Positions 13,615-20,291 are shown, numbered from the stretch's first letter. The stretch: 64,000 nt of DNA from an uncultured Alphaproteobacteria bacterium (GCA_903912365.1 CAIWGV010000046.1:10707-74706), one strand, 5' to 3'. Notes: a model not told the origin generated them from the letters alone. Numbers and translations are program-made.

Positions 13615-13740
13615 CGGCTGTATAAACTAAAAGTCTTTTCTGAAACTATTAAAAAGCATATAATGAATACAGTTAATTTATTATATGTATATTTATAAGT
13701 TAATAATAAAAAAATAAAACAGGGAGACGGAGGATAATAA
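13615..13740 (+). promoter_or_regulatory. Strongly AT-rich leader/promoter island upstream of the giant exoprotein gene
   Basis: ~125 bp of almost pure A/T (tataaactaaaag...ttatatgtatatttataagttaataataaaaaaataaaac), ending in an SD-like GGAGGA at ~13729-13734. It contrasts sharply with flanking composition. Confidence 0.4.
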
Positions 13741-13913
13741 GGGGGATAAGTTTTTTTAGAAAGGTTTTTCCGGGGATTCAGTTTTTTCTGGGGGGAGTTC
13801 TTTTTTCTATTTTTGCCCAGGCCCATGAGGCCGATACGCTGTCTCCCACAACTCTTCCCCAGGGACCTCAGGCAGTCCATGGCAATGTTGACTTCAAACA
13901 AGACCTCCACACT

Positions 13914-16900: not shown

Positions 16901-19900
16901 AACTTACAACTCTGGAGCTTTAACCTTCAGTAATGGGGGGAGTATTGGTTTTTCTGGTTCTAGTTCCATCCACATGGGGGGATTTGCAGGAGCCCTATCT
17001 GGACCTAATACCATCACAGGCTCCACCTATAACAGCGGAAATCTAACCCTCTCGAATGGAACCAACTCTAATAATGGAAACTCTAATAATGGAAATGTAA
17101 CAGGCGGGATTAATTTAGGAGGTTTCGTTGGAAGCAGCACCGGAGCCATTGATGGGACGTTAGGGGCAAACAGCAACACTGGAACCGTGGCCTTTACAAA
17201 TGGATATAATGGAGGAGGTACAGGAACAATCGGCACCTATCTCTATGTTGGAGGCTTCGCGGGGGCCATGAGCGCCAACGCCAACCTTACAGGGGCTACA
17301 TCCTCAAGTCCTGTCACCGTGGTGGATCAAAATAATTCTGGTAACAATTCTCCTCCTTTTTGTGTAGGCGGTCTTGTGGGAAACACCTCCAGTTCCATTT
17401 CCAATAGCTACGCCACAGGATCCGTCTCTTATACGGAAAATTCCATAAACACAAGCGCCTTATACATAGCCGGATTGGTGGCCCAAACCACCGGCGCAGC
17501 CATAACTAGCAGCTATTATAATCAGGCTCTTTCAGTAACTATCAGTTCCGCTCATCAGCTTCCATCTCTCCTCATGGGAGGGCTCGTGGCCTATAATGCC
17601 ACTCCCTTGTCAATTTCATCAAGTTATACAAGCGCGGGGAGTTCTCTCAGTCTCACAAATTCAGGTACTATCGCAATAGCTGCCGTGGGGGGGCTTGTGG
17701 GAAGTCCTGGGAGCACCTTAGTTCTCTCCACGACAACTAAGAATGCTGGAAATATGACCGTCACAAACACAGGGACATTTGGGGGTCTTTTCTATGGGGG
17801 TATCATTGGGGTCACAAAAGTCGCTGTAACCAGTACAGGTACCACTAACACTGGGAATCTAACCCTCCTCAATGGGACTGTCAATGGAGCAGGCTCCATA
17901 GGGACCGTTGAGATGGGAGGGTTCGTTGGAGGTAGCTCCAGCGCCATTGATGGGACGTTAGGGGCAAACAGCAGCTCTGGAACCGTGGCATTTACAAATG
18001 GACATACTGGGGGAGCTGGGTTACCCTACACAGGAACCATTGTCAACAATCTCTCCATTGGAGGCTTCGCGGGGGACATGAGCGCCAACGCCCTTATATG
18101 GGCTACATCCTCAAGCCCTGTCACCGTGATAGATGCAAATCATGTCGGTGCTGCTCCTTTTTGCATAGCTGGTCTTGTGGGAACCACGGGTGCAGGCGCA
18201 AGCATAAGTAACAGCTCTTATAATGGAGCTCTTTCAGCAACCATCAATCCCAATAATACTCTTGGGGTCCTCAACATGGGAGGGCTCGTTGCCTATAGTC
18301 AATACAGCCCATCAATTTCATCAAGTTATGTAAGTGCGGGGAGTTCTCTCAGTCTCACAAATTCAGGCACCCTAGGAGGAGGCGCCAATGTGGGGGGTCT
18401 TTTCGGGTATCTTAATTCTTTTAATTCCTCTGGAAATACTTACAATGCGGGCACTATGACCATTACGAACACGGGAACATTTTCGAGTACCCTTAACTAC
18501 GGGGGGGTCATTGGTTCTGCCAGTCAGACTACAACAAGCACAGGTACTTGTACCAACACCGGAAATTTAACCCTCCTCAATGGGACCTCTGATGGCCCAG
18601 GGACTATTACAGGAGATGTTTCCATGGGAGGGTTTTTTGGACTTTCAGCCGGCAGCTCTGGCACCGTATCCAGTTCTGGGGTACTCACCTTTACAAATGG
18701 AGCAGATACAGGTCCCACGGCAATACTATCAGGAAATCTTAATGTTGGAGGATTTGCAGGGTTTCTAAATGACAATGCCCCCCTGTCCGGTCAATCCTCA
18801 ACAGGCGTGACGGTTACAAATAATAGCAACATAACTACTACCAAGGCATGGAGTATTGCCGGTCTTGTAGGGAATGCCCTAAATAACATCATCAACAGCT
18901 CCGCCTCAGGAACTGTGTCTTATGTAGAAAATGCTATAAACGACAGTACTTTCGCCATAGGAGGATTGCTCGGTCAAAACACGGGTCCAGCAACCATAAG
19001 TAACAGCTCTTATAATGGGGCTCTTTCTGCAACCATCACCAACAATGGAAACTCAACCAATTCATTTTTTCTTGGAGGAATAGCAGCCGTCGCGTCAGCG
19101 AATCTCACAATCTCAGGAAGCTCTTTGGGATCCAATTCTTCCCTTCTTGTGACAAATAATGGAACTATGTATGAGTTAGGAATAGGAGGAATATCTGGAA
19201 AAAGTGAGGCCAACATCCCTCTAACGATTTCAGGCAGCTCTGTGGGGACCAATGCCTCCTTAGGATTTATCAATACTGGAAGAATTTTATCTAATTTGAG
19301 GAATTTTTTCTTTGGAGGAGTTGTTGCAGTGAATGGAGGCACGGCAACCCTTTCCAAAAGTTATAATCAGGGAAATCTTTTTTTAAATAATAGCGGAACC
19401 CTGAACTGCACAGTTTATTATGGGGGCATCATTGCCTCTCCTAGTAATGGGCAAACAATCAATCAAACTTTTAATACAGGAAATTTGAGTGTAACGAATT
19501 CCGGAACCGGAACCCTAACTAAACCCCTCTATATAGGAGGATTTGCAGGAAAGGAACCTGGTTTTCTAACAAGCCCTTTTACCGCTGCCAATAACTACAC
19601 CACAGGATCCATCAACATAAATAACTCAGGGAATCTTACAGATGTTTATATGGGAGGCTTCATGGGTTCTGTATCAGATCCTGACTCCACCATCAGCACA
19701 AGCTACACACGCACTTCCCTCTCCCTCACTAATACAGGCACTATTGCGGGAAACACCCTTGTGGGAAGTTTCGCCGGAAGTAATTCTGGAACAATCGCCA
19801 CTTCCTATGCCTTAATTCAACCCAGCGCTGTGGCAGGATTCACAAGCCCCTTGGCCCCCATTGGCGCAGGCACAATGAGTGGGGTTACACTTCTTCAACC

Positions 19901-20291
19901 CTATCAAATGGTTCAAAAGAACTACTTCCCAGCATTTAACTTTGGAAACCCCTGGTTTATAGACCAGTGGCTTTCAACGCCCTACTTAGGAAATGTTTCT
20001 TCTTACATTCCCTATTTATCATCAGATGCCTTGTATCTTTTTGGGGGGTTGTCAAACATCTTACAATCCATCGAAACCCTTCTTCACGATCATAGAACTC
20101 TAATTCCTTTGCAGGATCCCCTGAAGAGCGTCACCGTAGAAATGCCTAACTCCCAAGAAGATGGTATCAACTTATTTGGTCAGGACCCCACACCCCTTCA
20201 CCCTGAAATAACCCCCTCTCTAAAAGAGGAAGAAGAAGGAGAAAATCTATTCGGAATACCCCCCTTAGAGAGTATGGTGCTTGGCGGGTGA
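13914..20291 (+). CDS. Giant two-partner-secretion exoprotein (TpsA/FhaB-like) with N-terminal TPS (haemagglutination activity) domain and a long Gly/Ser/Thr/Asn-rich beta-helical repeat region
   Basis: TPS-domain signatures LTAIDWDSFSVG...VNSVVG...QVYILNPNGMVF (NPNGI motif), followed by ~1700 aa of degenerate ~20-25-aa repeats (YMGGFVG / GGLVGQTTG / SISNS...). The reading frame is open from 13710 and encodes a signal-peptide-like RGISFFRKVFPGIQFFLGGVLFSIFAQA|HEA upstream of the first ATG (13914). The true N-terminus is therefore probably upstream, with a non-ATG or slippage-dependent start. No autotransporter beta-domain is found at the C-terminus. Confidence 0.8.
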   Translation: MDITPHQSLTAIDWDSFSVGSKAAVSFHHGGSDYITVNSVVGSKLSEVAGQINVTGGGQVYILNPNGMVFHDGALVDSAVIVGTSTLDRTAFYEKGEVLLRASENAAPIIVNGTLTIKNAGLFRVVAPHFLNNGHIKGQLHVAAAEEVRVDLGDSRLTFTLNGKLKDAFLHTTKGSSVEGKTVTMTVGTVEEVLNETIRIDGDMRAVGLSEEGGRIILKGGDTGKTVVSGTLDASGKMDSDASPSAHVGGLVSVTGHTVEAEPTAHLKADGTTGGKIHFGVDEDFQRSSTDSVLKNPSVKATHVHIHSGAEMAAKATTGKGGSVIAIAKDTTTFQGKETLSEPSIFVTSQKGPGGFAEISGNKLRVEGLVDARSLETDEHGHVLFDPGSILISTAGGATMSGSALSTALIGANVTLQTTVGFSPGADLITIDDEVAWGNGTTLSLIGKDMLFTGNAQVQLIVGFLKIRTAYSTSIPQGAITLQPGYKIDSTDNPVLLFSSNGMDNITNSAGVHLTFGYTNYMNIYGANTVTNGPDTYYGLDLLINGTLPANGNYALMTDMTLVSPFSFPLSDPFTGILTATSLGVNPSPYTLTLPGGPQNLAVLGGNVYWGSLCPQLSGASIDSINFAIQGGSLTLNGPTGAGPITGGTYIGLLAGSATNSTITNVGVSSDSISYTNNIRSPNLYMGGLVGQATSTTPATVSISNITNSLNLYFTDRYVPPTSPPLDLYYIGGLVGSTSGSIFNSSSSGSLTYTQNPPTEGISSNLSAYVGGLVGQTTGSTINNSYYSGALQVSVPTDYGHINNLYVGGIAAYANSTGGLTISASNPTLAPVISISNSGGVVSSNGGVRGGVYMGGFVGASAQSITISNSVIPHGSNNILSLTNTGFVGGASMGGFLGQAFSTSTISNCSNAGTILLTNNNNFNNTGPSFGFISSTFLGGLLGAATGAVILTESHNSGNVTLANTNSATSGASFDSGDINYGGVIGAALSGLTSSLTYNSGALTFSNGGSIGFSGSSSIHMGGFAGALSGPNTITGSTYNSGNLTLSNGTNSNNGNSNNGNVTGGINLGGFVGSSTGAIDGTLGANSNTGTVAFTNGYNGGGTGTIGTYLYVGGFAGAMSANANLTGATSSSPVTVVDQNNSGNNSPPFCVGGLVGNTSSSISNSYATGSVSYTENSINTSALYIAGLVAQTTGAAITSSYYNQALSVTISSAHQLPSLLMGGLVAYNATPLSISSSYTSAGSSLSLTNSGTIAIAAVGGLVGSPGSTLVLSTTTKNAGNMTVTNTGTFGGLFYGGIIGVTKVAVTSTGTTNTGNLTLLNGTVNGAGSIGTVEMGGFVGGSSSAIDGTLGANSSSGTVAFTNGHTGGAGLPYTGTIVNNLSIGGFAGDMSANALIWATSSSPVTVIDANHVGAAPFCIAGLVGTTGAGASISNSSYNGALSATINPNNTLGVLNMGGLVAYSQYSPSISSSYVSAGSSLSLTNSGTLGGGANVGGLFGYLNSFNSSGNTYNAGTMTITNTGTFSSTLNYGGVIGSASQTTTSTGTCTNTGNLTLLNGTSDGPGTITGDVSMGGFFGLSAGSSGTVSSSGVLTFTNGADTGPTAILSGNLNVGGFAGFLNDNAPLSGQSSTGVTVTNNSNITTTKAWSIAGLVGNALNNIINSSASGTVSYVENAINDSTFAIGGLLGQNTGPATISNSSYNGALSATITNNGNSTNSFFLGGIAAVASANLTISGSSLGSNSSLLVTNNGTMYELGIGGISGKSEANIPLTISGSSVGTNASLGFINTGRILSNLRNFFFGGVVAVNGGTATLSKSYNQGNLFLNNSGTLNCTVYYGGIIASPSNGQTINQTFNTGNLSVTNSGTGTLTKPLYIGGFAGKEPGFLTSPFTAANNYTTGSININNSGNLTDVYMGGFMGSVSDPDSTISTSYTRTSLSLTNTGTIAGNTLVGSFAGSNSGTIATSYALIQPSAVAGFTSPLAPIGAGTMSGVTLLQPYQMVQKNYFPAFNFGNPWFIDQWLSTPYLGNVSSYIPYLSSDALYLFGGLSNILQSIETLLHDHRTLIPLQDPLKSVTVEMPNSQEDGINLFGQDPTPLHPEITPSLKEEEEGENLFGIPPLESMVLGG

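Follow-up and report, generated by a model that had tools for sequence, protein, structure and literature searches.

In enterotoxigenic E. coli, the genes for the TpsA adhesin EtpA, its transporter EtpB and the glycosyltransferase EtpC form one operon. HxuA, the heme/hemopexin-binding TpsA protein of Haemophilus, and HMW1 are encoded beside their TpsB, in the hxuCBA and hmw1ABC operons, respectively, and a review of two-partner secretion (TPS) describes that tpsA/tpsB arrangements other than a single operon occur and that unlinked tpsA genes are known. Here we analyzed a giant gene in a 64-kb stretch of DNA, hereafter the window (the whole stretch that was analyzed). We propose, with a probability of roughly 0.7, that its product is a TpsA protein of the EtpA/HxuA/HMW1 branch with an unlinked TpsB, a fibre of GLUG units with a role in host adhesion, and a repeat array that undergoes turnover.

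The giant gene, its neighbours and its proposed start codon

The giant gene occupies a single open frame with the following neighbours and 5' features:

10957..11625, minus strand: small outer-membrane beta-barrel protein of 221 aa (Pfam OMP_b-brl), syntenic in relatives
11680..13608, plus strand: soluble lytic transglycosylase (SLT domain, Pfam), the upstream neighbour slt, at the same position in contigs L001-L005
13659..13664, plus strand: TATAAT, a -10-like box ~70 nt upstream of the proposed start, a putative promoter element
13710..20291, plus strand: open frame of the giant TPS-domain, GLUG-repeat gene, with the stop codon at 20289-20291
13722..13733, plus strand: Shine-Dalgarno-like purine box GGGAGACGGAGG (sequence, orthologue alignment)
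13734..13736, plus strand: proposed non-canonical ATA start codon (orthologue alignment)
13734..13823, plus strand: putative Sec-type signal peptide, aa 1-30, with (M)IRGISFFRK, a hydrophobic core and AQA|HE (hydropathy)
20265..21407, minus strand: MltA (MltA and 3D domains, Pfam), the convergent downstream neighbour

The first-pass annotation had placed a giant gene, the largest of the window, at 13710-20291 between slt and mltA and near a small outer membrane protein. An ORF survey bore out an unbroken frame, which opens at 13710 right after three in-frame TAA codons and is the longest ORF of the window, and SLT-domain, MltA plus 3D, and OMP_b-brl genes were found at the positions given for the neighbours. 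Position 13710 did not hold as the start of the gene, the likely start being the ATA at 13734; counted from there, the encoded protein of ~216 kDa extends to aa 2185. Five related metagenome-derived contigs, one of them from an uncultured Holosporaceae, carry the gene in the order slt/giant gene/mltA/Tim44, with intact ORFs of 1252 to ~2190 aa at this locus. The slt product and MltA are 74-77% and 84-87% identical to those of the relatives, respectively, and the 3' end of mltA overlaps the giant gene by 27 nt (4 nt in L001, L003, and L004). Among the orthologues the ends of the giant protein are conserved and the repeat array is variable. The giant gene is not an island; a small group of Holosporaceae associated with protists has retained it at one chromosomal location.

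In the window, L001, and L005, the stretch from the upstream in-frame TAA to the TPS domain contains no ATG, GTG or TTG; the sole such codons in L003 (TTG at 6894) and L004 (ATG at 5285) fall inside the putative signal peptide and would truncate it, and none of the five orthologues has one ahead of the signal peptide. Without exception, the five orthologues carry an ATA at the aligned position (13734 in the window, 9761 in L001, 6861 in L003, 5228 in L004, and in L005). The purine box before it (GGAGA) is among the strongest Shine-Dalgarno-like boxes upstream of genes in the window, and a GGAGACGG(A/G)GG box is kept in four of the five orthologues, being weaker in L004. Further upstream, TATAAT is present in the corresponding AT-rich stretch of every orthologue (5/5); a scan for consensus promoters gave no complete -35/-10 pair upstream of the giant gene. 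The putative signal peptide exists only with translation from the ATA; its basic n-region, hydrophobic core of 17-20 residues and AxA-type cleavage site are kept in the five orthologues, third-position changes across it are synonymous in the alignment, and in the AF2 model it forms a separate N-terminal helix outside the fold. Judged by this alignment, translation of the giant gene probably starts at the weak, conserved ATA at 13734, and what appears to be new here is an ATA after a GGAGA box that is shared by five orthologues, with no canonical start codon ahead of the signal peptide.

Because no ATG, GTG or TTG precedes the signal peptide, public calls of the gene are truncated; they begin within the TPS domain and omit the signal peptide, and the TPS domain is consequently unannotated there. 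The missing canonical codon upstream of the TPS domain and the truncated automatic calls would also fit a decaying or unexpressed gene. We consider decay highly improbable, as a 6.5-kb frame has stayed free of stop codons in five diverged genomes with the N- and C-termini of its product conserved, the same ATA follows a Shine-Dalgarno-like box in the orthologues, and the changes in the signal-peptide region are synonymous. If the gene is translated as we propose, nature would provide here a clean case of a non-canonical initiation codon maintained by selection, an ATA that is invariant in five diverged genomes and that perhaps limits the synthesis of a very costly protein.

The secretion domain and the search for its transporter

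Two features follow the signal peptide:

13851..14633, plus strand: TPS domain, aa ~40-300 (PF05860, TIGR01901, AF2, Foldseek), with NPNG at aa 124
14634..15413, plus strand: beta-helix extension, aa 301-560, with a family-wide GGFAEISG...FDPG module

An N-terminal TPS domain had been predicted in the first-pass annotation from the motifs AIDWDSFSVG and QVYILNPNGMVF. Both motifs are present in the translation, and scans of the first 350 aa gave significant matches to PF05860 (72.9 bits, cut-off 33.5) and TIGR01901 (49.3 bits, cut-off 29.1); PF05860 was missed when the whole protein was scanned. The AF2 model of the domain (pLDDT 80-94) superposes on known secretion domains, and its best structural matches in Foldseek were all TpsA secretion domains: EtpA (8vbb at 8e-20; 8cpk with a target TM of 0.85), and further HMW1 (2odl), HxuA, FHA (1rwr, 3.6e-4) and HpmA. 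At the sequence level this region matched HxuA as well as EtpA, the alignment with EtpA 8cpk (2.6e-21) covering the TPS domain and part of the following beta-helix (aa 42-397) at only ~25% identity. The protein was modeled as a beta-helix over aa 40-530 (pLDDT mostly 80-94); in the extension, pLDDT is mostly >80 up to ~aa 530 and drops to 58-72 by aa 560, and all 21 homologues compared have the same GG-E-SG and DP residues. The TPS domain is thus supported along three independent lines, namely family profiles, sequence matches to the solved EtpA and HxuA, and the predicted fold. By sequence and predicted fold, the giant protein is a putative TpsA passenger of type Vb (two-partner) secretion. 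The TPS domain is the best-conserved region among the orthologues (65-66% identity, compared with 30-48% in the array and 74-87% for the neighbouring housekeeping genes); in a fast-evolving protein, this speaks for continued selection on secretion.

We searched for the TpsB partner in several ways. Pfam scans of 41 larger ORFs, including all of at least 450 aa outside the giant gene, found no ShlB or POTRA gene in the 64-kb window, and neither tblastn with a Psychrobacter TpsB nor a four-sequence TpsB HMM run against all stop-to-stop ORFs of at least 60 aa found a TpsB there, in agreement with the earlier claim for these 64 kb. The OMP_b-brl protein matched neither POTRA nor ShlB and was rejected as a TpsB. 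Searches of the 10 kb beyond the left end of the window (L014) and of the orthologous contigs likewise gave no TpsB, and in all there is none within ~23 kb upstream or ~44 kb downstream of the giant gene. In distant relatives, TpsB is adjacent (L008, L009) or at a distance of 7-9 kb (L011, L012), or there is none within 8 kb (L006, L007); because placement varies in this manner and unlinked arrangements are documented, the "orphan" status assigned to the gene is unproven from one contig.

A true orphan, its dedicated TpsB lost and its product periplasmic or brought to the surface by a BamA/TamA-like Omp85 protein or by cell lysis, would account for the lack of a TpsB around the gene and in every orthologous contig. 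It would also fit the Holosporales literature: reviews of secretion list type VI systems and pili, with type I, IV or V systems added for some families, and leave TPS unmentioned, and the genomes are described as highly streamlined. We regard this as unlikely: it is difficult to see why the TPS domain, of all parts of the protein, should be the most conserved if no partner recognizes it. Moreover, we know of no precedent for the secretion of a TpsA protein without a TpsB. Unlinked arrangements, in turn, are both documented and seen in L006 and L007. It would be a long shot for a Holosporaceae clade to keep a giant TpsA initiated at a conserved AUA but no ShlB-type TpsB, such that another Omp85 protein exports it, or for the fibre to act inside the envelope, its gene having stayed between those of two lytic transglycosylases. 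We therefore favor a TpsB encoded elsewhere.

Repeat array, C-terminus and proposed mode of action

The remainder of the protein consists of the following parts:

15414..15953, plus strand: variable linker, aa 561-740, largely missing from short orthologues, with gaps in L003 and L004
15954..19763, plus strand: array of ~34 GLUG-like units of ~38 aa each, aa 741-2010 (PF07581, motif spacing, AF2)
17118..19040, plus strand: super-repeat within the array, about three copies of ~700-800 nt blocks (6-7 GLUG units)
19764..20018, plus strand: GLUG-module cap, aa 2011-2095, with ...LQPYQMV...FNFGNPW.I...TPY...
20019..20288, plus strand: acidic, lineage-specific C-terminal tail, aa 2096-2185 (composition, profile search)

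The linker is 32-35% identical among orthologues and has a pLDDT <50 at aa 569-658. The array that follows had been described as an unusual repeat body of ~1700 aa; it measures ~1270 aa and is a divergent array of a known motif, GLUG (PF07581), whose combination with a TPS domain is common in databases. The match to PF07581 is weak (26.5 bits, cut-off 20.5, in four stretches). Units share the core hydrophobic-hydrophobic-GG[LFIV][VAI]G ... I.NS ... G.L.[FL].N at a spacing of 36-48 aa, and a regular expression finds 29 of them, the remaining units having variant cores. In the AF2 model of aa 1679-2011 (pLDDT 65-87), the fold is all-beta and each unit contributes three strands; confidence in this solenoid model is only moderate, and nothing matched it significantly in structure. 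The array is predicted to form a three-stranded beta-solenoid. Super-repeat families D2-D12 recur at a start-to-start spacing of 699-816 nt with 74-94% nucleotide identity, and among orthologues the GLUG copy number differs and array identity is 30-48%. Internal duplications of such identity, together with the length differences between orthologues, point to turnover of the array.

The cap is 55-61% identical among orthologues. Matches of 176 non-orthologous proteins to the C-terminal profile are confined to positions ~20-105, and the seven of these that were checked are all GLUG proteins, of which three also contain the C-terminal portion of Peptidase_M26_N. The full profile was matched only by the orthologue group among 1.84 billion representative proteins, and the protein is lineage-specific, as had been suggested, in this narrow sense. 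The tail contains 15 D/E against 3 K/R, three LFG motifs and one EEEE run, and was modeled with a single helix at pLDDT <50. The last 363 aa matched no Pfam family at E values of up to 10.

A lineage-specific stretch of 90 aa conserved among orthologues could be the cargo domain of a CdiA-like, toxin-delivering TpsA, and many TpsA proteins carry C-terminal effector domains according to the TPS review. Toxin delivery, which had been put forward in the first-pass annotation, is nevertheless very unlikely: the giant protein has no VENN/pretoxin motif, no recognisable toxin domain was found, the tail is short, acidic and, by prediction, mostly disordered, and mltA, convergent and overlapping, stands where an immunity-like gene would follow. 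A CdiA toxin was rejected for want of a VENN motif and on the identity of this downstream gene.

In its size, acidity and repeat content the protein resembles many type I adhesins, and the first-pass annotation had named a type I C-terminal signal and a C-terminal translocator as features that would speak against its reading. Export as a type I substrate or classical autotransporter is extremely unlikely. We found no RTX (GGxGxD) nonapeptides in the giant protein, its N-terminus is signal-peptide-like, and no ABC/MFP/TolC genes are adjacent, by which a type I RTX adhesin was rejected; a classical (type Va) autotransporter was rejected since no 12-strand C-terminal translocator was found by Pfam (last 363 aa) or in the model of the last 174 aa. 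An FhaB/FHA-type haemagglutinin was rejected as well, there being no Fil_haemagg match and no NPNL motif in the whole protein and a unique C-terminal region of only ~90 aa. The earlier statement that the body is neither an FhaB repeat nor an autotransporter stands.

For the TpsA fibre that we propose, translation would begin at the weak conserved ATA codon, and the 30-aa Sec signal peptide would take the protein to the periplasm, where the TPS domain would dock on the POTRA domains of an Omp85-family TpsB encoded elsewhere. The protein would then thread out and fold into a long rigid beta-helix, predicted to comprise the TPS helix, the EtpA-like extension and ~34 GLUG rungs, which would present the GLUG cap and the acidic lineage-specific tail at its far end; repeat number in the array would expand and contract by internal duplication. 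Its most likely role in this host-associated Holosporaceae bacterium is to mediate adhesion of the cell surface to structures of the host. Accounts of secretion in Holosporales mostly deal with type VI systems and pili, and a conserved, fast-evolving TPS-type fibre of 216 kDa is a concrete candidate for host attachment in a protist-associated group. Nothing here alters knowledge of two-partner secretion itself.

Comparison with known systems

EtpA (PDB 8cpk, 8vbb) is the best match to the giant protein in both sequence and structure, and the two share an NPNG motif and the lack of NPNL, which are features of the subfamily; the body of EtpA, however, is built of a different repeat without GLUG units. 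HxuA and the HMW1 secretion domain have the same TPS fold and belong to the same subfamily, but their functional regions differ and include no GLUG array. FhaB/FHA of Bordetella is likewise a TpsA adhesin of giant size, in which a TPS domain at the N-terminus (1rwr) is joined to a beta-helical shaft; it is encoded near fhaC, whereas the giant protein has no Fil_haemagg repeats, NPNL motif or long C-terminal prodomain. GLUG modules of Gram-positive surface proteins and the N-terminal region of IgA1 protease (Peptidase_M26_N) align with the part of the profile that covers the last repeats and the cap, but these proteins have no TPS domain and are anchored otherwise (SLH and fn3 were seen).

The same overall plan, with a signal peptide (putative in the giant protein), a TPS domain, a GGF.E.SG...DP module and GLUG repeats, is found in uncharacterized TPS+GLUG proteins such as Psychrobacter P0061 (L008). 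Of the 120 homologues listed, about 80 combine PF05860 with PF07581. Identities to proteins of this kind are 25-33%, with coverage of at most ~45% of the query for nearly all, and the searchable literature holds no functional data on any TPS+GLUG protein. These proteins are annotated as 'filamentous hemagglutinin N-terminal domain-containing', 'GLUG motif-containing' or 'MBG domain-containing'. In Psychrobacter a TpsB gene lies directly downstream of the TPS+GLUG gene, unlike at the present locus. Most of these proteins also have ESPR, YDG, and MBG domains, which the giant protein lacks, and their GLUG content is smaller and higher-scoring, whereas the giant protein combines ~34 divergent units with a tail specific to its lineage.

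The secretion domain and architecture of the giant protein

The frame of the giant plus-strand ORF opens at 13710, directly behind three in-frame TAA codons, and closes with the stop codon at 20289-20291; ranking of ORFs agrees with the first-pass annotation that this is the largest gene in the window. The N-terminus of the encoded protein is a genuine two-partner-secretion (TPS) domain. That annotation had proposed a TPS domain here, and the first 350 residues indeed matched the Pfam TPS profile (PF05860) significantly, with 72.9 bits (cut-off 33.5), as well as NCBIfam TIGR01901, with 49.3 bits (cut-off 29.1). 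When the whole protein was scanned against Pfam, however, the TPS domain was missed and the sole return was the GLUG motif PF07581 (26.5 bits, cut-off 20.5), so including the long repeat body hides the TPS match. The N-terminal 589 residues also matched solved structures, namely the secretion domains of HxuA and of EtpA (8cpk; 2.6e-21, with aa 42-397 aligned). An AlphaFold2 model of aa 1-760, computed with 21 homologues as input, had pLDDT values mostly of 80-94 across aa 40-530 and of 58-72 by aa 560, and every significant Foldseek match of this model in the PDB was a TpsA secretion domain, including EtpA (8vbb, 8e-20; 8cpk, target TM 0.85), HMW1 (2odl), HxuA, FHA (1rwr) and HpmA.

Features of the giant protein (plus strand; residues numbered from the proposed ATA start at 13734)
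aa 1-30: putative signal peptide, cleavage between AQA and HE, assigned from sequence
aa ~40-300: TPS domain, with NPNG at aa 124 and NPNL absent
aa 301-560: beta-helix extension, containing the family-wide GGF.E.SG...DP module
aa 561-740: linker, with poor conservation and low model confidence
aa 741-2010: GLUG-like array, ~34 units of ~38 aa each
aa 2011-2095: GLUG module cap, assigned by C-terminal profile search and a check of matched proteins
aa 2096-2185: acidic tail, with 15 D/E against 3 K/R, three LFG motifs and an EEEE run

The mature protein would have a mass of ~216 kDa and a pI of 4.8. Its repeat body, described as unusual in the first-pass annotation, proved to be of an ordinary kind: the repeats are GLUG motifs (PF07581), and the combination of TPS and GLUG is common, being found in about 80 among the best 120 homologues listed. 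Within the array, a super-repeat of 700-800 nt is present in about three copies with 74-94% nucleotide identity. We also observed a perfect 15-nt tandem duplication, AACTCTAATAATGGA, at 17064-17095 (2.1 copies, encoding NSNNG NSNNG), which looks like a recent slippage event. A beta-helix had been expected on structure prediction of the repeats. The model of aa 1679-2185 was all-beta as far as about aa 2011 (pLDDT 65-87), with the GLUG core forming the first of three strands in each modelled unit, as expected of a three-sided solenoid. Foldseek returned no significant match for this model in the PDB, the best non-significant matches all being beta-helix proteins. Model confidence was low in the last 174 residues, where one helix but no C-terminal barrel was predicted, and the VENN motif and RTX nonapeptide are both absent from the sequence. 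Together with the absence of NPNL and the return of GLUG only from the whole-protein Pfam scan, the lack of a modelled barrel upholds the earlier view that this is neither a classical FhaB repeat protein nor an autotransporter. The giant protein is not FhaB-type, an autotransporter, CdiA-like or a type I substrate.

Translation start and public gene calls

The start chosen by gene callers, ATG 13914, falls within the TPS domain; the same frame encodes, farther upstream, the domain's conserved first strands (LPQGPQAVHGNVDF...) and a segment resembling a signal peptide. In the stretch from the in-frame TAA codons to the TPS domain, ATG, GTG and TTG are absent from the window and from the orthologous contigs L001 and L005, and the orthologous contigs L003 and L004 have only a TTG and only an ATG, respectively, each inside the signal peptide, so that a start there would truncate it. 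In the signal-peptide stretch the orthologues differ at synonymous third positions, which shows that this stretch is translated. A frameshift on poly-A from a small upstream ORF with ATG 13685 would be possible in the window, but it was rejected because an equivalent upstream ORF is absent from all four orthologous contigs. ATT 13776 was also rejected as a start: it lacks a well-spaced Shine-Dalgarno-like box, its use would remove the basic n-region, and L005 does not have it. An ATA codon, by comparison, is invariant at the aligned position in all five orthologues, follows the Shine-Dalgarno-like box GGAGACGG(A/G)GG, which in L004 is weaker, with the spacing usual in this genome, and would give every orthologue a textbook putative signal peptide. 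Rfam, promoter and terminator scans of 13400-14100 returned nothing useful. The lack of a usable canonical codon, the invariant ATA, the Shine-Dalgarno-like box and the signal peptide make initiation at ATA the best reading of the start of the giant gene.

In public annotation, members of this gene family are called from internal ATG, GTG or TTG codons (window 13914, L001 10001, L003 6894, L004 5429). The signal peptide is thereby lost or shortened, as are the first TPS strands in three of these four calls. Because of these internal starts, the precomputed Pfam entries of P0001 (the public entry of the window protein) and P0002 (an orthologue) lack PF05860.

Conservation of the locus and other genes of the window

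Public protein databases contained the window protein as the truncated call P0001 and three orthologue cluster representatives, P0002 (2081 aa), P0003 (1312 aa) and P0004 (1252 aa). A scan of genome contigs found one orthologue, in an uncultured Holosporaceae MAG and cut at the contig end, and a scan of metagenome contigs found distant relatives alone (28-32% identity). The repeat array breaks short-read assemblies, as happened in L005. No identical sequence was found for P0001, for P0019 or for the window's last ORF. Across the contigs of the database proteins and one GTDB genome contig titled 'uncultured Holosporaceae bacterium', the shared gene order was a tRNA U5-methyltransferase-like gene, a small OMP_b-brl gene, slt, the giant gene, convergent mltA, whose 3' end overlaps that of the giant gene, and a Tim44-like gene. 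Identity to the window was 74-87% for neighbouring housekeeping proteins, 60-64% for the small OMP and 43-49% overall for the giant protein (TPS domain 65-66%, cap 55-61%, tail 39-49%, array 30-48%), with the orthologues' differences in length lying in the linker and array. Thus, the giant gene is not an island: it is inherited vertically, evolves fast and belongs to the core genes of a narrow clade.

In an exhaustive profile search of the last 190 residues against 1.84 billion representatives, full-length matches were only to orthologues and one fragment, and the remaining 176 matches covered the GLUG cap only; all seven cap-matching proteins checked were GLUG proteins, three with the C-terminal part of Peptidase_M26_N. 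At their 3' ends, the giant gene and mltA overlap by 27 nt in the window (20265-20291), compared to 4 nt in L001, L003 and L004, and here the window protein carries a 9-aa C-terminal extension, IPPLESMVL.

Other genes of the window
1879-7238 (~5.5 kb): asnB, a 472-aa family-less polytopic membrane protein, a GT4 glycosyltransferase and a 238-aa Terminase_6N fragment
32996-34480 (-): subtilase (Peptidase_S8) with a C-terminal IQ calmodulin-binding motif (PF00612, 27.5 bits)
44701-46605 (-) and 25423-26460 (-): proteins with signal-peptide-like hydrophobic N-termini and no Pfam family, one of 634 aa and mostly helical-looking, the other of 345 aa and highly charged
30951-32117 (-), 8155-9192 (-), 60927-62216 (-) and 22092-22592 (+): accessory-type genes amid housekeeping genes, for a Fic/DOC protein, a YhcG PDDEXK nuclease, an AAA_14/DUF4143 ATPase and a Hypoth_Ymh protein

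The block at 1879-7238 separates dnaN from the Bax1-I gene, two neighbours in L001, and probably represents an insertion that contains a remnant of a phage or GTA; L001 also lacks YhcG at the corresponding spot. Since the IQ motif is of eukaryote type and sits in a bacterial protease, the subtilase may be a host-directed effector, and the two family-less proteins are candidate secreted effectors.

The transporter partner and relation to known TPS systems

Pfam scans of 41 larger ORFs of the window, including every ORF of at least 450 aa, found no ShlB/POTRA protein, and neither tblastn with a Psychrobacter TpsB nor a four-sequence TpsB HMM run on every ORF of at least 60 aa found a TpsB; none was present among three family-less ORFs inspected, on a contig that shares the window's dnaN and reaches 10 kb farther left, or on the orthologous contigs. 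As these searches covered the contig neighbourhood, the description 'orphan' in the first-pass annotation holds for that span only, meaning that no TpsB lies within ~23 kb upstream or ~44 kb downstream. Among distant TPS-domain relatives, contigs L008 and L009 had an adjacent TpsB, L011 and L012 had one at a distance of 7-9 kb, and the alphaproteobacterial genomes L006 and L007 had none within 8 kb. L007 carries two tandem TPS-domain genes at 8001-15896 (1231 and 1375 aa) and is another case of tpsA genes without TpsB nearby.

The literature searched held no relevant paper on TPS or haemagglutinin proteins in Holosporales or Holosporaceae, nor on GLUG combined with TPS terms, leaving the architecture uncharacterised in searchable literature, and TPS systems go unmentioned in reviews of Holosporales. 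We consider the locus of moderate interest for its conserved putative ATA start, truncated public annotation, lineage-specific tail and transporter question. According to a review of TPS systems, tpsA and tpsB mostly form one operon, other arrangements occur, and a single TpsB may serve several TpsA proteins. Strong conservation of the TPS domain speaks for the existence of a partner. Judged by sequence and predicted fold, the giant protein combines a TpsA of the EtpA/HxuA/HMW1 branch with a GLUG solenoid.
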